From positions 51,127 to 115,126 of the forward strand of contig JABHSK010000009.1 in NCBI GenBank assembly GCA_018669975.1: 64,000 bases of DNA. The letters run 5' to 3'. Position numbers and translations under genes: made by a program. Origin of the DNA: Candidatus Parcubacteria bacterium. GTDB taxonomy: Bacteria; Patescibacteriota; Patescibacteriia; UBA1558; GWA2-36-10. The notes under the pieces are model-generated. The model did no database searches and was not told the origin of the DNA. It saw nothing but the letters and a program-made list of their open reading frames with translations. Below, in pieces: positions 8,673-46,472 of the stretch; within the stretch, counting starts at the first letter, position 1; every line of letters begins with the position of its first letter.

Positions 8673-9623
8673 TTAAATGATTTTTTTTATGTAGTGCCTA
8701 GTTTCTTTTTTGTCTGCCTGTCGAACAATAATCTCTCCCAAAAACCCCATTGATATCAACTGGATGCCAATTATGATAAATAATACCCCTAAAAATAACA
8801 ACGGCCTACTACCAATAGCTTGCCCCTGAAACCAAACAATAGTTAAATATAAACACAGACCAGAACCGAGGAGAAAAAACATTAGACCCAAATTACCAAA
8901 GAAATGCGCTGGCTTACGAGCATACTTAGTCAATAAAATAACATTAATTGGATCTAATAAATAATTAGTAAATCTACCTAGTCCAAGATTGCCATATTTT
9001 GATTCGTCAAACTTGCGAGCATGGTGCTTAACTACGACCTCTGTCACCTTAAAGCCTTGTTGGTGAGCTAAAGCTGGCAGGAATCTATGCAGCTCTCCGT
9101 AAACGTTTATATTTTTTACTACCTCTTTTTTATAAATCTTAAAACCACAATTAAAATCATGCAGCTTTATTCCTGTCATTGATGCTACGGTAATATTAAA
9201 TATTTTAGAAGATATTAATTTTACCAAAGGATCCTTGCGATCTTTTTTCCAACCAGAAACCAGATCATAACCCTTATTTATTTTAGCTATTAGATTTGGT
9301 ATCTCATTGGGATCATCTTGCAAGTCAGCATCCATGGTAACAACTAAATCTCCCTGACATTCCTGAAACCCAATAGCTAGGGCTGCGGACTTGCCAAAAT
9401 TACGTCTTAGACTAATTACCTTAATTTGTTGATTGCTTACTTTGAGCTGCTTGAGAATATCTAGAGATCCATCATCAGAACCATCATCTATATAGACTAT
9501 CTCGTATGTTAAATTTAACCCAGTCAAAACATCAACTAATTTATCATTTAATTCCTGCAAAGAACCCTTTTCATTAAAAAGAGGAATTACTATTGATATT
9601 TCTTGATTAATTTTTTCAGACAT
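8673..9623 (-). CDS. GT2 polyprenol-phosphate glycosyltransferase (DPM1/ArnC/GtrB-like) with C-terminal TM helices
   Basis: ISIVIPLFNE, YIDDGSDDGS, TMDADLQDDP (DxD) motifs; two C-terminal TM helices. Confidence 0.85.
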   Translation of the reverse strand: MSEKINQEISIVIPLFNEKGSLQELNDKLVDVLTGLNLTYEIVYIDDGSDDGSLDILKQLKVSNQQIKVISLRRNFGKSAALAIGFQECQGDLVVTMDADLQDDPNEIPNLIAKINKGYDLVSGWKKDRKDPLVKLISSKIFNITVASMTGIKLHDFNCGFKIYKKEVVKNINVYGELHRFLPALAHQQGFKVTEVVVKHHARKFDESKYGNLGLGRFTNYLLDPINVILLTKYARKPAHFFGNLGLMFFLLGSGLCLYLTIVWFQGQAIGSRPLLFLGVLFIIIGIQLISMGFLGEIIVRQADKKETRHYIKKII

Positions 9624-40150: not shown

Positions 40151-41755
40151 ATGCCAAGAAAAAAACGTACCACTTTATTAAACAAAATAACTGCTCTCAA
40201 ATTAGACTATGTGTTGCTTTTTGTTTTAATGTCACTATACTATGGACGATTACAGTGGAATAATTTCATCGGTGATCCAGATGGCTTTTACCATGCTAAA
40301 ATAACCACCTTTCTAGGCCAGGGCACTTTACTTAAAAGCTTACCCTGGATGCAGTTTACCACCCTAAAAGAACACTATACTGATCATCATCTACTATATC
40401 ATTTGTTACTTTTGCCTTTTACCTATATAACCGACAATGCTCTATTGGCTGTAAAGATAGCTACAGTTTTGTTTGCTGTAATAATGATTTTAGTCTTTTA
40501 TTGGCTACTCAAACAATTCAAGATTGTTTGGCCATTTGTCTTTGCTTTGTTATTTATAAGCCTGGAGGCGGTCAGCTTTAGATTGGCGCTAGTTAAGGCT
40601 AATTCTTTATCATTATTAGTCATTTGGTTATTGATATATGCCATGTTCCGTCAAAAAACATGGCTAATGGCTTTGCTGGGTTTTGTTTTTGTATGGCTTT
40701 ATGGTGGTTGGGCACTATCCATTATTATTTTCTTTATTTATTTCTTTAGTGAAAAAATATATGAACGCCTTAATACAAATAAATTAAAATTATTTTGGTC
40801 CAAAGTAGTCCATACTTTTAATTTTAAAAAGGGAAGCGCTAAAAACCATCGTATATTTCTAGGATTAATTCTGGGACTATTAGCTGGACTAGTTATTAAT
40901 CCCTATTGGCCACATAATTTATATTTTTATTATCAACAAATAATACAAATTGGCGTTATCAACCTTGGTGGTCAACTACAAGTAGGCGGTGAATGGTATG
41001 GCACATCTTTTATGCATATTATTTCTTCCTTGCCGCATATTTTTGTTCTAGCTAGTCTTTTGATTTTAATGTTATTTATAAACTACCAAAAAATTAGTAA
41101 AAAAACTTGGTTTAGTTTTTTGTTAAGTTTTGTCTTCTTGTTATTGACTGTAAAATCACGTCGTTATATAGAATACTTCTCTCCTTTCTTACTATTATTC
41201 ACGGCCTGTGCTTTCACTGATGTTAAATCTATGGTTAATTGGAAAAAAATAAAAAAATTCTGGAGTAATAATCCAACTTATTTAAAGGTGTACTTAGGTT
41301 TGGCCGGCACACTGTTTACCATATTGATACTACCGGTTATTTTCACTAAAACCTGGGATGTGGCTATCCCACAGAATTGGACCCTAGAAAAATTTCGCCC
41401 TGGCTTACTCTGGCTAAAACAAAACACACCAGCGGACACACTAATTTTCCATGGAGATTGGGATGAATGGCCAATACTCTTTTATCATAATGATCACAAC
41501 CGCTACATAGTTGGCTTAGACCCTACTTTTATGTACAACTTTGATGCTAATCTACAGCAAGAGCACACTGATATCACTGCTGGAAAAATAAAAGGGATAG
41601 TTTCAGAAAAAATAAAAAAAGACTTTGGTGCTGACTATGTTTTTATAGAAAAAAAAGAACATGCCGCGTTTGGAAACAACTTAGACATGGACTCCTTTGC
41701 TACGCTTGTTTATGAAGACGAAGAAGTGGCTATTTATCACTTGATAAGTCCCTAA
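40151..41755 (+). CDS. large polytopic membrane protein, unknown function
   Basis: 534 aa, about 12 TM helices, C-terminal soluble domain. Confidence 0.35.
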   Translation: MPRKKRTTLLNKITALKLDYVLLFVLMSLYYGRLQWNNFIGDPDGFYHAKITTFLGQGTLLKSLPWMQFTTLKEHYTDHHLLYHLLLLPFTYITDNALLAVKIATVLFAVIMILVFYWLLKQFKIVWPFVFALLFISLEAVSFRLALVKANSLSLLVIWLLIYAMFRQKTWLMALLGFVFVWLYGGWALSIIIFFIYFFSEKIYERLNTNKLKLFWSKVVHTFNFKKGSAKNHRIFLGLILGLLAGLVINPYWPHNLYFYYQQIIQIGVINLGGQLQVGGEWYGTSFMHIISSLPHIFVLASLLILMLFINYQKISKKTWFSFLLSFVFLLLTVKSRRYIEYFSPFLLLFTACAFTDVKSMVNWKKIKKFWSNNPTYLKVYLGLAGTLFTILILPVIFTKTWDVAIPQNWTLEKFRPGLLWLKQNTPADTLIFHGDWDEWPILFYHNDHNRYIVGLDPTFMYNFDANLQQEHTDITAGKIKGIVSEKIKKDFGADYVFIEKKEHAAFGNNLDMDSFATLVYEDEEVAIYHLISP

Positions 41756-43631
41756 GCTCTGTTTCTTCAGTCAATTCTAATTTAGGTACAACGTCCTTGA
41801 TTAGGCTAATTGCATTAATTCCCTGATAAGAAAAAATTTGATAAGAGTTTATATCTGAACTGAGATAGTAATAAAAATGTACTAACTCATTCTCTGGCCA
41901 ATCTTTTTCTGAAAATACACCATAGTCTAGGGGCATATCAAAATCATAATTTCGCCCATAAAAACGCACCAGATAACTATTGTCCTCGGTGTGATTTTTT
42001 TGTAAAGTAAGCTCCAGTACCCCATCAGTAAAATTTGCCCCTATTAAAAAATCATCTTCCGCAAACCCTATTGGTTTCTCGTCGGTGCGATATAATTCTA
42101 TATTATCCTGAGTGGCATGTTGCTTGTTTTGCCAAAGTAATAAATTATTCCAAGCCTTAATTAAAGAATAATCGTTTAATACCTGTTGCCAATTATTTGG
42201 AATATCATCTCTCTTGTATTCTAAAAAAGAAGCTATATTTTTTTCTACAATAGTGGCTAAAAATTGAGAATTGTCCACCAGTATATAATCTACTGGCGGT
42301 AACTCAAACTCAAAACCACAAAACTGCCCACAACCAAAGTATGAGCCAGCCAAAGTGTAAACCTCTTGTCTGGTGCTAGCTGGCGCAATAAAGGTTGACT
42401 CCGCCACCAAGCTAGCCTCTGGTGGTATCTGAGCAAAAAATTCTTGCTTAGCTTGAACTAATTCCCTTGGATACTTTTTAAATAATATATCTTTAGCTGG
42501 CGATAAAAAGATTGAAAAATAAACTATTGTGACTACAAAAATTAATGTAACAAAACCAAAATTTTTATAAATATGTTTACTGCCCGAAAATCTTTCCTGT
42601 AGAAGAACCCTTTTAAAAGCAAAAATTAGGGCTATAAAAATCCCCGGCATAAATAATAGAGTATAGTGCGTACTATAAGCCATGAAATTAAAACCGCTAC
42701 CACTTAAAAGAATCTGTAAAAAAGGTAAAAAGGCCAAAGAGAGGTATCTAGATTTCAAAAATGGCAGAAATAAGACTGGCAACATAATTACTGCAATGCT
42801 GAGAAAATTATTTATATTTATTAAATGCCAAATAAACTGTATTGGATGAGTTAACCAACTAATAATGATACCTAAAATACTTTCTCCCCCCAGCCAACCA
42901 TAATAAGCAAAAAACTTATAGCTACCCGCTATAGAAAAATAACTAATAATCTTAAGTGCAGATAAAAAATAAACAACTGGTAATAACAAACTAAACAGTT
43001 TCCATTTTAAACTACGTTTATGCAGTATTGCCAACCAAGTGAATGCTAACAGTATTAAGCTAATATCTTCTCTGACAAGTAGTGCTAAAATAAAAAATAA
43101 CACAAATAATTTAAAACTTCTCTGCTGATAAAAATAAAATACCCAGAAAATAAAAAATACAGCTATCGGCAACAGGTGAAATTCAAAGACATTGGCGCTG
43201 TGCACAAAAGGATTAAGTAGCCACATTAAAGCAACAATCAATGACACTACTTTGTTTTTAACGATATTTCTACTAATTAAATATATAGGCCAAGCGCTCA
43301 ATCCCAAAATAACGCTCTGTAATATTAGTAATGTTTCTGGCGTCTGCCAAAACCAATAAAAAGGCAGTAATAAAAAAATGATTGGTGTAAAATGGTCAGC
43401 TAAATAAATGTTGAAATTAACCGTTCCGGCGAACCAATCACCGTGCAGGGTATTAAAAAAGACTTGATTAAAGATTGCTAAATCATAGGCGTTGTAGCTA
43501 AAATTATAGTACTTCTTAAGGCTTAAAAAGGCCATTAGGAGCACGTATAGCACTGTGGCAATACCCAACACCAAAGCACTGTGTTTATTAGCAAAATTGC
43601 TTATTTTTGAGCTAAAATGTGACATATCCAT
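41730..43631 (-). CDS. large polytopic membrane protein, DUF2079-like (putative GT-C-fold glycosyltransferase)
   Basis: 633 aa; N-terminal YDLAIFNQ ... LADHFTPIIFLLLPFYWFW resembles DUF2079 conserved block; C-terminal extracytoplasmic domain. Confidence 0.4.
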   Translation of the reverse strand: MDMSHFSSKISNFANKHSALVLGIATVLYVLLMAFLSLKKYYNFSYNAYDLAIFNQVFFNTLHGDWFAGTVNFNIYLADHFTPIIFLLLPFYWFWQTPETLLILQSVILGLSAWPIYLISRNIVKNKVVSLIVALMWLLNPFVHSANVFEFHLLPIAVFFIFWVFYFYQQRSFKLFVLFFILALLVREDISLILLAFTWLAILHKRSLKWKLFSLLLPVVYFLSALKIISYFSIAGSYKFFAYYGWLGGESILGIIISWLTHPIQFIWHLININNFLSIAVIMLPVLFLPFLKSRYLSLAFLPFLQILLSGSGFNFMAYSTHYTLLFMPGIFIALIFAFKRVLLQERFSGSKHIYKNFGFVTLIFVVTIVYFSIFLSPAKDILFKKYPRELVQAKQEFFAQIPPEASLVAESTFIAPASTRQEVYTLAGSYFGCGQFCGFEFELPPVDYILVDNSQFLATIVEKNIASFLEYKRDDIPNNWQQVLNDYSLIKAWNNLLLWQNKQHATQDNIELYRTDEKPIGFAEDDFLIGANFTDGVLELTLQKNHTEDNSYLVRFYGRNYDFDMPLDYGVFSEKDWPENELVHFYYYLSSDINSYQIFSYQGINAISLIKDVVPKLELTEETELRDLSSDK

Positions 43632-43669
43632 ATTATATCACATTAAAAATGCCGGGGGTATGCTAAATA

Positions 43670-43698
43670 TTGACAAAATAGATGAAATATGATATAAT
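43670..43698 (+). promoter_or_regulatory. perfect sigma70 consensus promoter (TTGACA, 17 nt spacer, TATAAT)
   Basis: TTGACA at 43670-43675, TATAAT at 43693-43698; drives the GC-rich lipoprotein gene. Confidence 0.6.
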
Positions 43699-43780
43699 TA
43701 TAAGATTCTTAATGTGGCCTTTGTATAAGGTCCGACTGTTCATTTCTTCGCTAGGAAACTCTAAATAGGAGGTCGTCATC

Positions 43781-44503
43781 ATGAAGACGTCACAATTGTT
43801 AATCTCGTTACTCTTGGTAGCAGTTATGAGCGCTATCCTGAGTGGCTGTGGTGCCACAAAACAATGGTATGGTTCATCACCTAATGGAACCTACGATCAT
43901 CGAGGCCCGCGCCTCGATACCAACAACTCACCCAAGGTCGAAAATATCATCGACAACCAAAGCAAAGAAATGCTTTTTGTCGACATCGAAGGACATGACC
44001 TGAGTTTCAGTGAGCATTTGGTTCAGGTCAACCCTGGTACCAAGCTGACTCGCAAGGGTCGTAGCTATCGTCGCCTCAAGGTGACTGTTCGCTGGATGGG
44101 CACTGGCTTCCGCAACACCATCGGTCACACCGAAGAGGAGATGAAATTCCTGATGCCCGGCCTATACTCCGGTGACCCTATTGTCATCACCGATGCCATG
44201 CTTCGAGGTCAGATGCCTATGCGTGGCATCATCATCTGCCAGGGTGACCCCACCCTATATCAAGATGATCGAGGTCATCGCTTCAAGATGAACAACGGTG
44301 ACAAAATTGAAGTCAACATGTCTTCTGGTCCAATTGAGTTCAAATTCAGATCACTGCGAGATCCCTCTCGCTTTGGCAGCAGGACTTATCCTGATTGCAT
44401 TGATCTCGAAACTGAACAATATGAAGTCGTTGGACCCGATGGCAAAAAGAAGCGTTATGACTTCACTGTCATTGTCGATGAATCCTGGCGTCATCGCTGG
44501 TAG
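43781..44503 (+). CDS. lipoprotein of unknown function, compositionally foreign (GC about 50%)
   Basis: AGGAGG SD; signal peptide plus lipobox ILSGCG; codon usage rich in CGC/CGT/CTG/GGC/ATC unlike neighbours; no family recognised. Confidence 0.6.
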   Translation: MKTSQLLISLLLVAVMSAILSGCGATKQWYGSSPNGTYDHRGPRLDTNNSPKVENIIDNQSKEMLFVDIEGHDLSFSEHLVQVNPGTKLTRKGRSYRRLKVTVRWMGTGFRNTIGHTEEEMKFLMPGLYSGDPIVITDAMLRGQMPMRGIIICQGDPTLYQDDRGHRFKMNNGDKIEVNMSSGPIEFKFRSLRDPSRFGSRTYPDCIDLETEQYEVVGPDGKKKRYDFTVIVDESWRHRW

Positions 44504-44525
44504 TCAAAAACTACCGAAATACAAA

Positions 44526-44559
44526 GCGCCGCAGCTCGAAAGCTGCGGCGCGTTTTTTT
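44526..44559. terminator. strong GC-rich intrinsic terminator (11-bp stem, T8), shared with the convergent pilin-like operon
   Basis: gcgccgcagctcgaaagctgcggcgcgttttttt. Confidence 0.7.
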
Positions 44560-44572
44560 AATAAAAATATAT

Positions 44573-44956
44573 TTATGGATTAAGCGGAGTATTACCAGTT
44601 GAAGCTTTTAGTAGGCTATCAAAAACAAATCTAACAATAGCATACGAAGTAACAACTATAACTAAACCTATGGTTGCATTCTTAATTGATTCCTTGGCTT
44701 CTTTTATTCTATCTGCATTACCTTGAGAAGTCATCCATTTGAAACCACCTAAAATAATCAAAACAACAAAGAGTGTCCCTAAGACAGCGAGCAAACCTCT
44801 AACGATAGATGCAATTACATCTGTAATTGGTCTTTCAATTAATCCCGTTTGACCAGCTATTTGATCTAGTCCTCCAGCAGACTCTAAAGGACCCGCTGAA
44901 GCAACCAACGGAGCTAAAGCAAACAATAAAATAAACTTGTATTTTAAATTTTTCAT
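44573..44956 (-). CDS. small secreted two-helix protein, paralog 1 of 4 (pilin-like, VirB2/TrbC-type architecture)
   Basis: Signal peptide, hydrophobic helix, conserved GGFKWMTSQGNADRIKEAK core, second hydrophobic helix. Confidence 0.45.
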   Translation of the reverse strand: MKNLKYKFILLFALAPLVASAGPLESAGGLDQIAGQTGLIERPITDVIASIVRGLLAVLGTLFVVLIILGGFKWMTSQGNADRIKEAKESIKNATIGLVIVVTSYAIVRFVFDSLLKASTGNTPLNP

Positions 44957-45043
44957 TATATTTAGAAAGTAAAGCCTAGTGGAGGCTAAGCTCTAGTAGG
45001 TCATAATTCAATGACCTACTATAGTCTAGACTACATAGGTCTA

Positions 45044-45388
45044 TTAGATAGTTTCGTTTTGTAAAGATGTTAGTACGAAACGTGATATTGCGTAAGCAGT
45101 CAAGATGATGACCAAACCAACTATACCTGCTCCAATAAGCTTTTTAGCTTCATCAACTTTATCAGTGTTGCCTTGAGAAGTCATCCATTTGAAACCACCC
45201 ATAAGGATGATCAAAGTAGCTAAAATTCCCAAGAAACCCAAGACGATGTTTACAACAGAAGATGCAGTGTCACCTAGTTCTTTAGTACCCAGGTTTGAAT
45301 TCTTCATTGAATTAACACCGTATACGTCAAGCTGAGCTGATGCTGCCATCGGCATGAAAAGTAATGCGCTAGTGATAAGTTTGTTCAT
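45044..45388 (-). CDS. small secreted two-helix protein, paralog 2 of 4 (pilin-like); has its own promoter and strong SD
   Basis: GGFKWMTSQGNTDKVDEAK core; GGGGGTG SD 7 nt upstream. Confidence 0.45.
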   Translation of the reverse strand: MNKLITSALLFMPMAASAQLDVYGVNSMKNSNLGTKELGDTASSVVNIVLGFLGILATLIILMGGFKWMTSQGNTDKVDEAKKLIGAGIVGLVIILTAYAISRFVLTSLQNETI

Positions 45389-45427
45389 TGTTTCACCCCC
45401 TTTCTAAAAAATAAAAGTATTGTTTAA

Positions 45428-45456
45428 ATTATAAAACAAAATTGACTTTTTTACAA
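45428..45456 (-). promoter_or_regulatory. sigma70-like promoter on the minus strand (TTGTAA, 17 nt spacer, TATAAT) internal to the paralog array, driving paralog 2
   Basis: Reverse complement reads ttgtaaaaaagtcaattttgttttataat; -35 at 45451-45456, -10 at 45428-45433. Confidence 0.5.
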
Positions 45457-45460
45457 TAGA

Positions 45461-45793
45461 TTAGCTAGTGCCAGCCAAAGTACTGAAAAAGTATCTTATT
45501 ATAGCATAGCTCATGAAAATAGCCACTAGTCCGAAAATAGCCCAAACTATAGTGTCTTTTCCTCTTTTTACTTTGTCAGTATTACCAGCTGAGGTCATCC
45601 AAGTGACGCCTCCCCAAACCAACATTAGTAAAGCCACAGCACCAACTATGCCTAATATACCTTTGACAGCAAAACCTATAACCGTAGGTATATCTTCCGC
45701 TGGCAATGGATTGGGCAACTCGGCCGCCTTAACCAACAAAGGCGCAAAGAATAATAATGTAGCCAAAAATGTTTTATGTTTGTTTTTAATCAT
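45461..45793 (-). CDS. small secreted two-helix protein, paralog 3 of 4 (pilin-like)
   Basis: GGVTWMTSAGNTDKVKRGK core; 25-nt gap to paralog 4. Confidence 0.45.
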   Translation of the reverse strand: MIKNKHKTFLATLLFFAPLLVKAAELPNPLPAEDIPTVIGFAVKGILGIVGAVALLMLVWGGVTWMTSAGNTDKVKRGKDTIVWAIFGLVAIFMSYAIIRYFFSTLAGTS

Positions 45794-45818
45794 ATCTATA
45801 TATTAATTTAATATTACC

Positions 45819-46472
45819 TTAAAGTGACGCAGCATTTAATGTGCAAAGATTAGTGTTGCTTCCTGGACACAAGCCAGCTTCAGTTACAGGACCTACTGGA
45901 ATAGCGCCCATTTCACTAAAATCAAAACAAGACCAATTTCCTGAATCATCCAAAAGATTCTTTAATTGACATTTTGTTACGCAGGTTTCGTTGTGGCTAG
46001 ACTTATCACCACTAAAGGTGTCCGTGCCAGTACAAACATAGTTTGTTTCTGTTTCATTACAACGACTATCTTTTGCTTTCTCAGTACAAGAAGCTGCTAT
46101 TTTATATCTTGAATTTGTAACACCCAAAATATCATTAACAAAAAATGATGTTAATAAATAACTACTAAAAGCTATAAACAAAGCAATGAGGGTATTAATC
46201 ATAATCTGCTGACCACGCTTTACTCTGTCAGCATTACCACCAGAAACCAACCATTGAATACCTCCCCAAATAAAATATAGTAGCGCTATTGCTCCCATGC
46301 CACCGAGCAACATTTGAATTAAATAGGTAAAACCTAAAGTGATATCTTCTAGGCTACAATTTCCATCTTTAATACAGGTCTCTGGAAGTTTATCTAAAAA
46401 TCCTTGAGCAAAGCCAACATTTGGCGCCAAGATGACAATTAATAAAATTGAAAAAAATAAAATTTTATTCAT
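45819..46472 (-). CDS. paralog 4 of 4: pilin-like N-terminal module fused to a 110-aa Cys-rich C-terminal domain
   Basis: GGIQWLVSGGNADRVKRGQ core; C-terminal region with 12 Cys (CTEKAKDSRCNETETNYVCTG...CVTKCQ...CFDF...CPGSNTNLC). Confidence 0.45.
   Translation of the reverse strand: MNKILFFSILLIVILAPNVGFAQGFLDKLPETCIKDGNCSLEDITLGFTYLIQMLLGGMGAIALLYFIWGGIQWLVSGGNADRVKRGQQIMINTLIALFIAFSSYLLTSFFVNDILGVTNSRYKIAASCTEKAKDSRCNETETNYVCTGTDTFSGDKSSHNETCVTKCQLKNLLDDSGNWSCFDFSEMGAIPVGPVTEAGLCPGSNTNLCTLNAASL

Follow-up and report, generated by a model that had tools for sequence, protein, structure and literature searches.

Braun's lipoprotein, the major lipoprotein of E. coli, is encoded by lpp, whose promoter is strong and whose mRNA is notably stable and abundant. 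Genes that are GC-rich within AT-rich genomes are familiar among those for rRNA, tRNA and other structured RNAs. For synonymous sites in bacteria, a genome-wide selective force favoring G+C was reportedly put forward by Raghavan, Kelkar and Ochman in 2012 and is said to have been followed up by Kelkar et al. in 2015, and a study of designed mRNAs is said to bear the title 'mRNA structure regulates protein expression through changes in functional half-life'. A transcriptome-wide study in mycobacteria found that the secondary structure of coding sequences correlates positively with mRNA half-life, and its introduction cites work that links GC content with stability in further bacteria (bioRxiv 10.1101/2024.06.02.596988). 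VirB2-like pilin arrays have been described in Patescibacteria, in a cultivated member of which they were reported to be essential (PMC12102498). The lipoprotein gene considered here lies beside such an array, in a stretch of 64,000 nucleotides that was analyzed as a whole (the window), and its composition departs sharply from that of its surroundings.

A GC-rich gene between AT-rich flanks

The gene occupies positions 43781-44503 on the plus strand (240 aa plus stop) and has a GC content of 48.7%, with 52%, 40% and 53.5% at the first, second and third codon positions. GC content is 35.3% in the 64-kb window and 33.1% and 35.6% in the 2 kb to the left and right of the gene, in agreement with the original prediction of a GC-rich ORF between AT-rich flanks. 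The most GC-rich 723-nt stretch of the 64 kb (723-nt mean 35.3%, sd 3.2%) falls within this ORF. Its third-position GC (GC3) is 0.535, compared to 0.287 +/- 0.034 (maximum 0.36) for the 51 other genes of the window. Codon fractions in the gene versus the other window genes are 0.42 versus 0.07 for CGC, 0.28 versus 0.06 for CTG, 0.67 versus 0.14 for ATC, 0.05 versus 0.39 for AGA, and 0.11 versus 0.39 for TTA, and avoidance of ATA, AGA and TTA is strong. The contrast between CGC-, CTG- and ATC-rich codons and AGA- and TTA-favoring neighbors had been noted originally, along with the proposal that GC, GC3 and codon usage be computed across the locus; in that comparison, the gene is an outlier relative to the 51 others.

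The GC boundary at the ORF is sharp, with 33% GC in the adjoining intergenic DNA, and in none of the lineages does the GC excess extend beyond the ORF. A chimeric assembly was ruled out by an independent metaSPAdes contig (L010) that is 99.98% identical over 12,447 nt spanning both junctions, and by the assemblies of at least 10 other samples, in which near orthologs have the same surroundings. Overlapping or antisense coding was also rejected, the alternative ORFs being short and non-conserved. No integrase, transposase or flanking direct repeats were found at the locus, as had been stated originally, nor was a tRNA gene.

Genomic context and expression signals

The divergent neighbor on the left encodes a DUF2079 membrane protein of 633 aa (41730-43631, minus strand). 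On the right, four VirB2-like pilin genes (PF18895 T4SS_pilin; 127, 114, 110 and 217 aa) occupy 44573-46472 on the minus strand, convergent with the lipoprotein gene, and the surface-type neighborhood that had been postulated from this arrangement holds. The DUF2079 gene and the pilin array provide the left and right syntenic anchors for comparison with relatives.

A sigma70-type promoter on the plus strand (43670-43698) combines the -35 hexamer TTGACA (43670-75), a 17-nt spacer, an extended -10 TG (43690-91) and the -10 hexamer TATAAT (43693-98), the TG being an addition to the exact hexamers recognized from the outset. It is the sole 12/12 consensus match in 64 kb, where shuffled sequences give an expectation of 0.05. 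The AT-rich flanks contain many promoter-like hexamer pairs (34 in 8 kb). The promoter is conserved in the family lineages as TTGACAAAA...A(T)ATGATATAAT, and similar promoters also precede unrelated genes found at the same site in two further lineages (L021 and L024).

The predicted 5' UTR of about 76 nt (43705-43780, plus strand, from an inferred transcription start) includes a small hairpin (43716-21/43727-32), which recurs with differing stems (GGCC/GGCC, GCCC/GGGC, GUCC/GGAC and UAGCC/GGCUA), and a CU-rich tract (43743-50) with predicted pairing to a Shine-Dalgarno (SD)-like AGGAAA. In most relatives, the predicted partner of the CU-rich tract is the SD itself, with a loop of 3-4 nt between the two; in the window, a 14-nt insertion relative to L001 and L005 shifts the real SD downstream. 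The 5' UTR gave no match to Rfam at the gathering threshold. The SD sequence AGGAGG (43767-43772, plus strand) lies 8 nt before the ATG, as predicted, and SD-like sequences stand upstream of the start in every family lineage (AGGAGG, AAGGAG, or the weaker AAAGGA and AGAGG).

An intrinsic terminator (44526-44559, plus strand) is formed by an 11-bp stem (44526-36/44541-51) with nine GC pairs and a 4-nt loop; the stem is as first described, while the tract given as eight T residues is a G followed by seven, a trivial difference. It can also serve the convergent pilin gene. Compensatory substitutions occur in the stem in L001 and L005, with four pairs doubly changed, and a strong terminator is present at the corresponding place in every family lineage. 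The set of signals is strong and, as first noted, unusually complete. Promoter, 5' UTR hairpins and terminator are conserved along with the gene. Since a consensus extended -10 promoter and a strong terminator would delimit a single-gene unit, the product is probably very abundant. Judged by these consensus signals, expression would be high, and the transcript and protein are probably among the most abundant of the cell.

A previously undescribed lipoprotein family

The protein begins with a signal peptide (aa 1-22; 43781-43846) followed by the lipobox LSGC, whose Cys23 (43847-49) does not vary across an alignment of 19 family members. The sequence MKTSQLLISLLLVAVMSAILSG-C23 fits the pattern [LVI][ASTVI][GAS]C, which bears out the signal peptide and lipobox of the original prediction. 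Two Ig-like beta-sandwich domains are predicted for the mature lipoprotein by AlphaFold2 (pLDDT 77 from the 19-sequence alignment, pLDDT 31 from three close homologs), and the only PDB entries matched by sequence are de novo designed Ig domains (E about 1e-3). That no known family had been recognized is consistent with the profile searches: Pfam, PHROG and PADLOC gave no match, and NCBIfam scores were far under the cut-off, the weak matches spanning lipoprotein signal regions only. The coding sequence had no Rfam hit.

An exhaustive HMMER search of 1.84 billion representative proteins yielded about 15 clusters and, at E <= 0.001, no homolog outside this small family, which a word-indexed search with the family profile had represented by 5 proteins only. 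Members that could be placed are syntenic, and no relative was found on the viral contigs searched. A previously undescribed lipoprotein family is thus defined here. With a dN/dS of 0.10-0.15, it is under purifying selection. In the Pfam scan of about 30 proteins of the window, neither Lgt nor LspA was noticed. The protein would be located at the surface, probably ranking among the major surface proteins of these episymbiont-type cells, making it a candidate for a function in host contact or envelope structure.

Conservation of position and composition

DUF2079 and T4SS_pilin genes flank the lipoprotein gene in the window and in P0002, P0003, P0004, P0005, P0010, P0012, P0013 and P0016, and in P0006 (L033) the gene lies by the pilin array in the same neighborhood without the DUF2079 gene; all family members that could be placed are syntenic with the window gene. 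The ten placed genes have 47-55% GC and a GC3 of 0.54-0.68. Flank GC3 is 20-33% in nine lineages; in L033, it is 0.49 and that of the gene is 0.62. The GC content of the gene lies at an absolute level rather than at a fixed offset from its own genome.

Three close lineages, including that of the window, differ in the lipoprotein gene by a dN of 0.11-0.16 and a dS of 0.8-1.35, with copies of 49-55% GC; amino acid identity within this trio is 77-82% for the lipoprotein and 70-90% for DUF2079 and the pilins. In seven distant lineages, the site is occupied by a copy with a GC3 of 0.54-0.68, at 21-41% identity for the lipoprotein and about 45-60% for flank proteins, and in deep pairs the lipoprotein is 17-30% identical versus 55-67% for SBP. 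Between L016 and L030, the lipoprotein is 78% identical and most flanking genes 81-96%, as against 46% for DUF2079, a gene that has clearly been exchanged between close relatives. Among the genome contigs scanned with DUF2079, only distant relatives (26-35% identity) were found.

The site is empty in L015, L011, L017, L018, L020 and L025. Because L015 lacks the gene, though nested among carriers, the gene is dispensable in that lineage. Empty sites are confined to L015, whose distance is similar to that of the deep carriers, and to more distant lineages; all close relatives (76-80% identity) and seven deeper lineages carry the gene. In L021 and L024, the site is filled by unrelated lipoprotein genes that are somewhat GC-richer than their flanks, and the same gene order is found on Patescibacteria-like contigs with genome GC contents of 28-70%.

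Agreement at the third base of shared fourfold codons is typically 0.32-0.33 in deep pairs, compared to 0.28-0.31 expected from independent draws, and is above expectation in 4 of 14 pairs, including 0.69 versus 0.35 (n=29) for the window and L016. For most pairs of deep lineages, synonymous sites are therefore saturated, and a decaying foreign signature should be gone. Within the close trio, flank dS is mostly at least 1.4 (0.59 in one pilin pair), a span over which a neutral GC3 excess is estimated to decay to roughly a quarter, given an equilibrium GC3 of about 0.30. The dS of the lipoprotein gene (0.83-1.35) is below that of these flanks at a similar dN, which suggests that its synonymous sites are constrained. 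In third-position differences (35 versus 13), the window copy has shifted further toward AT than have its two sisters; parsimony polarization of GC-to-AT against AT-to-GC changes was set aside as unreliable because of saturation. The gene is best read as a vertically inherited resident of one Patescibacteria (CPR) clade. It may have been acquired anciently, at the root of the clade, which would leave its present composition unexplained.

Excess folding of the coding sequence

The coding sequences of all ten lineages are predicted to fold more stably than their own synonymous-codon shuffles, with z scores of -8.1, -4.9, -4.35, -3.9, -3.7, -3.4, -3.1, -2.6, -2.5 and -2.2, whereas 21 controls range from -2.0 to +2.0. 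Ten of these are window genes (z -1.4 to +2.0), and the 11 others (z -2.0 to +0.8) comprise nine ordinary genes from relatives of higher GC content, together with the pair of unrelated lipoprotein genes from the same site. Minimum free energy (MFE) per nucleotide is -0.31 to -0.38 in the family and -0.18 to -0.27 in neighboring genes. The excess also appears against dinucleotide shuffles (z -7.0, -3.1 and -4.6) and, in 9 of 10 lineages, against shuffles within 30-codon blocks that keep local composition (z -2.3 to -5.3). Compositional heterogeneity as the source of the negative scores was ruled out by these block shuffles together with the GC-matched control genes.

The individual base pairs of the folds are not conserved. 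Pairs in single-sequence MFE structures were kept in orthologs at 0.29-0.41, versus 0.38-0.42 in a null of matched random complementary positions, so no single conserved architecture was found. An RNAalifold count of consensus pairs and covariation was discarded as circular, because one alignment served for both the structure and the count, and the independent matched-null test was negative. The reverse complement has a similar folding excess (mean z about -3), so that the excess does not discriminate between the sense RNA and the DNA.

Probable selection at synonymous sites and alternative explanations

With moderate confidence, the gene is taken to be a vertically inherited, highly expressed lipoprotein gene whose GC- and C-rich, self-complementary coding sequence is kept by selection at synonymous sites, likely for mRNA stability. 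At fourfold sites, the family genes have C fractions of 0.32-0.48 (mostly 0.12-0.21 in the flanks), with G at 0.08-0.26 and A at 0.08-0.18. Synonymous-site selection would oppose the AT-biased mutation of the genome, making high GC a stationary property; third positions would be held C-rich and A-poor, and the coding sequence more self-complementary than its codons and amino acids require. The benefit might be a compact, nuclease-resistant and long-lived mRNA, aided by hairpins at its two ends, one in the 5' UTR and one in the 3' terminator, which in turn would lead to high output of a surface protein. The trait under selection is most likely mRNA stability. The excess of predicted folding would be an independent signal pointing to a cause at the mRNA level. 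A bolder version is advanced more tentatively: that a GC-rich, hyper-self-complementary, 'armoured' mRNA is held by selection across this clade of ultra-small bacteria with AT-rich genomes, that the physics of the mRNA (its stability or compactness) overrides mutational bias by 25-35 GC3 points in this one gene, and that neither codon adaptation nor foreign origin is the cause.

Extreme translational selection, in which the gene is the most highly expressed, C-ending codons are optimal and folding is a by-product, is unlikely to account for these features. It would accommodate the consensus promoter and SD, the strong avoidance of ATA, AGA and TTA, and a preference for C-ending (NNC) codons in twofold families that is shared by other genes likely to be highly expressed (pilin114, 0.77; S20, 0.43; pilin110, 0.40; Tig, 0.36). 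At fourfold sites, however, these genes take T or A: in the likely highly expressed genes of the window, fourfold C is 0.05-0.21 versus 0.41 in the lipoprotein gene, and S20, the pilins, Tig and RpoBC do not have its C at these sites. This comparison is drawn from the window, where S20 is the sole ribosomal protein and none lies upstream of rpoB. No shift in codon usage was found in RpoB, RpoC, NusA or RecA, G-ending twofold codons are raised in the lipoprotein gene as well, and shuffles that preserve its codons fold far less stably. Translational selection is, moreover, expected to be weak in slow growers with tiny genomes and few tRNA genes.

Less probable still is a recombination hot spot with repeated replacement by alleles from GC-richer Patescibacteria through the conserved flanks, or with GC-biased gene conversion. 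The shared gene order on contigs of widely differing GC content (28-70%), the exchange of the neighboring DUF2079 gene (46% versus 81-96% for most neighbors), the somewhat GC-rich unrelated lipoprotein genes at the site in L021 and L024, and the fourfold agreement between the window and L016 (69% versus 35% expected, n=29) are what such replacement might produce, but divergence of the lipoprotein follows that of the flanks, and in L033, the sole carrier of higher GC content that was found, the gene still exceeds its genome in GC. Gene conversion is expected to be strand-symmetric and to spill into the flanks; because the excess here is specific to C on the sense strand and sharply bounded by the ORF, it fits this process poorly. 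The excess self-complementarity would be unexplained in either case.

Little credence is given to a function at the DNA level, whereby a segment rich in GC and inverted repeats would be under selection in its DNA form, for instance because it keeps AT-binding nucleoid proteins away, rids a heavily transcribed gene of spurious intragenic or antisense promoters, or acts as a structural element. The about equally strong self-complementarity of the antisense strand and the abundance of promoter-like hexamer pairs in the flanks speak for such a function, which is also partly compatible with selection on the mRNA. Against it, the fourfold bias is strand-asymmetric, with C much greater than G, the effect is limited to the ORF, and no palindromic or methylation word (TCGA, GATC) is enriched in the gene.

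The recent horizontal acquisition originally proposed, from a GC-richer donor into the site between DUF2079 and the pilin array and without amelioration since, is hardly credible: the atypical composition and codon usage, the self-contained cassette, complete with promoter and terminator, and the empty sites favor it, but, in the pattern originally named as contradicting it, an equally or more GC-rich gene occupies the same site in 10 of 10 placed lineages, including those with 21-30% identity and saturated sites, its divergence is proportional to that of its flanks, its promoter is conserved with it, mobility genes and repeats are absent, and no donor was found, there being no homolog beyond the family in the 1.84 billion representatives or the viral contigs.

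Significance and comparison with known systems

Atypical GC content and codon usage are standard markers of horizontal transfer, and at this locus, where both are present, they would be a false positive. If selection at synonymous sites is indeed responsible, a compositional island need not be evidence of horizontal transfer, and the elusive force that favors GC in bacteria becomes testable on one defined gene. The locus would then constitute a natural experiment in which synonymous-site selection is set against AT-biased mutation, with a very large effect in one gene across at least 10 lineages.

A close parallel is lpp, which likewise encodes a lipoprotein on a monocistronic unit, combines very strong expression signals with a strong terminator and has synonymous usage that departs from the genome average, and for which mRNA stability is thought to aid output. 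Lpp, however, is a 58-aa coiled coil with no sequence or fold relationship to the two predicted beta-sandwich domains described here, lpp is not a compositional island, and the abundance of the present protein is inferred. The combination of a secretion core cluster with specific fold or sequence similarity that marks the TssJ (type VI) and VirB7 (type IV) lipoproteins was not found.

With genomic islets and phage 'morons', the gene shares a compositional contrast confined to one gene and a self-contained transcription unit; unlike them, it retains its position and anomaly across saturated lineages, and has no mobility genes, repeats, prophage context or viral-contig relative. Like the genes of structured RNAs, it produces a local rise in GC and folds more stably than composition explains, but it is protein-coding, as reflected in its dN/dS, and is without a conserved base-pair architecture or Rfam match. 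Finally, as with the force reportedly identified in 2012, GC-rich synonymous sites appear to be kept against AT-biased mutation, beyond classical codon adaptation. In contrast to that genome-wide force, the effect is found here in a single gene, with GC3 raised by +0.23 to +0.38, and is conserved throughout a clade and accompanied by excess self-complementarity.

Gene neighbourhood

The lipoprotein gene (43781-44503, + strand) lies in a window that also encodes rpoB/rpoC, recA, ftsK, nusA, tig, polA, an H+-pyrophosphatase, glycogen-type glycosyltransferases and polysaccharide genes; relatives of the window among public genomes carry the label Patescibacteria. It is flanked by a divergent gene for a DUF2079 membrane protein and by a convergent array of four VirB2-like pilin genes (PF18895), followed by an SBP gene and an NTP-transferase gene. 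VirB2-like pilin arrays have already been described in Patescibacteria (PMC12102498). The order NTP-transferase, SBP, pilin array, DUF2079 is kept in related contigs L011-L029, with contig GC of 28% to 70% and pilin copy number from 2-3 up to more than 10; a 70% GC contig, L013, carries the label 'uncultured Gammaproteobacteria', perhaps by misclassification. One pilin gene of the window, pilin114 (45044-45388, - strand), has NNC at 77% of its twofold codons ending in a pyrimidine, against about 20% for the genome, and is nearly devoid of C at fourfold sites (0.05). This resembles the pattern of classical translational selection, here in a CPR genome, and pilin114 is probably the major pilin.

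The DUF2079 proteins of two closely related contigs (L016:5986-7890 and L030:5920-7686, orthologues of window 41730-43631) are only 46% identical, against 81-96% for the proteins of most other genes, and in L016 DUF2079 adjoins two additional ORFs of 511 and 476 aa. From these comparisons, the exchanged, hypervariable part of the locus appears to be the DUF2079 region, not the lipoprotein gene. In the window, positions 43632-43644 (- strand; reverse complement TGTGATATAAT) form an extended -10 box that abuts the ATG of the divergent DUF2079 gene, with a second ATG 6 nt further on, a placement that suggests a leaderless DUF2079 mRNA; the motif TTATATCA is kept in many related loci. Elsewhere, contig L039 (positions 1-1418 and 8953-9582 being of interest) encodes an RpoB identical to that of the window, with dnaA and dnaN about 9 kb upstream of rpoB and a type IV pilin-like (N_methyl) gene immediately upstream. 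Because the RpoC sizes differ (1326 aa, versus 1294 aa in the window), L039 is perhaps a related strain; if its arrangement applies to the window's genome, the window would lie near the replication origin.

A lipoprotein family

The 240-aa product has a signal peptide and the lipobox LSGC and, as originally predicted, belongs to no recognised family: searches of Pfam, NCBIfam, PHROG and PADLOC returned no family match. A word-indexed search of 5.8 billion proteins recovered only the protein itself and two relatives (80% and 76% identity); searching 1.84 billion cluster representatives exhaustively with HMMER added 14 clusters (E 1e-44 to 4e-4). These members are 223-270 aa long, apart from one truncated to 150 aa. 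A truncated member adjoins DUF2079 in L022. All have an N-terminal hydrophobic region up to an invariant lipobox Cys, the full-length ones carry a complete signal peptide and lipobox, and the alignment contains the motifs N-x-S, PG, LPGLY-G-P-IVITD, GDP-x-Y-DD-G and SGP. The family is previously undescribed; the window holds no paralogue. An AlphaFold2 model from the family alignment is all-beta, with two beta-sandwich domains (pLDDT 77), and the product is probably a very abundant surface protein of this fold. A dN/dS of 0.10-0.15 among three close lineages indicates that it is functional. Its sequence changes somewhat faster than those of most neighbours (78% versus 81-96% identity between L016 and L030). 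The adjoining pilins and envelope-polysaccharide genes suggest an envelope or host-contact role.

Expression signals

The promoter (TTGACA-17-TATAAT, 43670-43698, + strand) matches the consensus exactly, has an extended -10 TG, and is the sole 12/12 match in the window, with 0.05 expected by chance. Across lineages it is nearly base-for-base the same (TTGACAAAA-N8-AAATATGATATAAT and variants). A Shine-Dalgarno AGGAGG (43767-72, + strand) stands 8 nt before the ATG, and a strong terminator closes the gene in each lineage; that of the window has an 11-bp stem (44526-36/44541-51, + strand) followed by G and T7, and the stem covaries within the close trio (the window, L001 and L005 lineages). Every lineage has a small hairpin in the 5' UTR, its stem sequence varying by lineage, and in most a CU-rich tract is predicted to pair with the Shine-Dalgarno across a 3-4 nt loop. 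When window 43742-43772 was compared with the matching UTRs of L005, L016, L030, L036 and L038, the pairing segments changed together (UCCUUC/GGAGGA versus CCUUU/AAAGG versus CCUU/AAGG); in the window, a 14-nt insertion causes the CU tract to pair with a pseudo-SD (AGGAAA) instead, leaving the true AGGAGG unpaired. Such pairing may act as a translational throttle or RNA thermometer.

Composition and its maintenance

All sequence features named in the original prediction were found in place, and its codon contrasts were borne out by counts across 52 window genes: CGC, CTG, ATC, GTC, AAC and TTC are raised and AGA, TTA and ATA lowered. The ORF has 48.7% GC (GC1 52%, GC2 40%, GC3 53.5%), against 35.3% for the window and 33.1% and 35.6% for its 2-kb flanks. 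Stretches of 723 nt average 35.3% GC (sd 3.2%) over the 64 kb, with the highest value in this ORF, and its GC3 of 0.535 is 7 sd above the other genes (0.287 +/- 0.034, maximum 0.36). No mobility genes, nearby tRNA or flanking repeats were found at the locus. An assembly chimera was ruled out, as contig L010, assembled independently, matches 12.4 kb spanning both junctions at 99.98% identity, and the same gene context recurs around orthologues assembled from many other samples.

All family members that could be placed (the window, P0002, P0003, P0004, P0005, P0006, P0010, P0012, P0013 and P0016) occupy one site in one orientation. Across all ten lineages, GC of the gene is 47-55% and its GC3 0.54-0.68, and in nine the flanking genes have 31-38% GC and GC3 of 0.21-0.33, a gene-minus-flank GC3 of +0.23 to +0.38. 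Because the gene of L033, the only carrier whose genome is GC-richer, reaches GC3 0.62 against 0.49 in its flanks, the gene holds an absolute composition rather than one set relative to its genome. Of the close trio, the window's copy has the lowest GC. In most pairs of deep lineages, the third bases of shared fourfold codons match no more often than independent draws would, so synonymous sites are saturated. The window and L016 share the third base at 69% of 29 such codons (35% expected), which may be chance or an alignment effect; L005, the window's sister, matches L016 at 36%. Flank dS is at least 1.4 even inside the close trio; with an equilibrium GC3 of about 0.30 and GC/AT interchanges making up about 80% of changes at third positions, a neutral GC3 excess is estimated to drop to roughly a quarter over the close-trio interval and to be gone over deeper splits. 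GC-richness is a stationary, maintained property, and we are largely confident that this is a resident, clade-wide gene and not one bearing a relict composition.

Several contigs have empty sites (L015:5895-6001; also L011, L017, L018, L020 and L025), with about 50-220 bp between pilin array and DUF2079. L015 is related to the window about as closely as several carriers are (88% identity in the NTP-transferase, 61% in the SBP), so it has either lost the gene or never gained it. In more distant relatives, unrelated lipoprotein genes of similar size occupy the same site and orientation (L021:5102-5821(-) and L024:5121-5729(-)), with similar TTGACA-17-TATAAT-type promoters and GC3 above the flanks (+0.17 and +0.07), though without a folding excess (z about 0). 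From this arrangement, the site seems to be favoured by strongly expressed lipoprotein genes.

Causes of the bias

Extreme translational selection is the best-placed alternative, although an unlikely one. At twofold codons the gene (0.54) shares its preference for NNC with pilin114 (0.77), S20 (0.43), pilin110 (0.40) and Tig (0.36), all of them likely to be highly expressed; at fourfold sites, however, those genes favour T or A (C 0.05-0.21), whereas the lipoprotein gene has C at 0.41; ordinary translational selection covers part, not all, of the bias. A hot spot of repeated replacement or biased conversion is less probable still. GC-biased conversion, or plain import from a GC-rich pool, fits poorly because the excess ends at the ORF boundaries (intergenic DNA, 33% GC) and is strand-asymmetric: across lineages, fourfold C is 0.32-0.48 (flanks mostly 0.12-0.21), G only 0.08-0.26, and A down to 0.08-0.18. 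The gene's divergence follows that of its flanks at every depth, and its dS lies below that of most flanks at similar dN, which indicates synonymous-site constraint.

Under codon permutation, with protein and codon usage fixed, the coding sequences folded more stably than their permutations in 10/10 lineages (z -8.1, -4.9, -4.35, -3.9, -3.7, -3.4, -3.1, -2.6, -2.5 and -2.2), compared with -1.4 to +2.0 for ten ordinary window genes and -2.0 to +0.8 for nine ordinary genes of GC-richer relatives plus the two unrelated same-site genes. Dinucleotide-preserving shuffles concurred (-7.0, -3.1, -4.6), as did shuffles within 30-codon blocks, which keep local composition (-2.3 to -5.3 in 9/10). Wobble C would supply pairing partners for G-rich first codon positions, accounting for C far exceeding G. 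No palindromic word was found behind the self-complementarity, and predicted base pairs were kept between orthologues no more than in a matched null; what is selected, if anything, is overall foldedness, not one architecture. RNAalifold covariation counts were set aside as circular. Because the antisense strand has an excess of similar size, RNA-level and DNA-level causes are inseparable by computation; a DNA-level function is considered quite improbable. The original prediction stands in its description and fails in its reading of recent horizontal acquisition, for which very little probability remains, equally GC-rich homologues being syntenic in ten lineages, the very finding it had named as its refutation.

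Proposed selection for foldedness and comparison with other bacteria

Together, the expression signals and folding excess point to a transcript made for high, durable output. The full proposal, held with moderate confidence, is that a probably abundant two-beta-sandwich surface lipoprotein has a coding sequence that selection would keep GC/C-rich and self-complementary, with mRNA stability the most plausible selected trait. New here are the lipoprotein family and an unusual clade-wide, single-gene compositional island that is not foreign. Transcriptome-wide in a mycobacterium, coding-sequence secondary structure correlates positively with mRNA half-life (bioRxiv 10.1101/2024.06.02.596988), and the introduction of that study cites work that associates GC content with the stability of mRNA in other bacteria.
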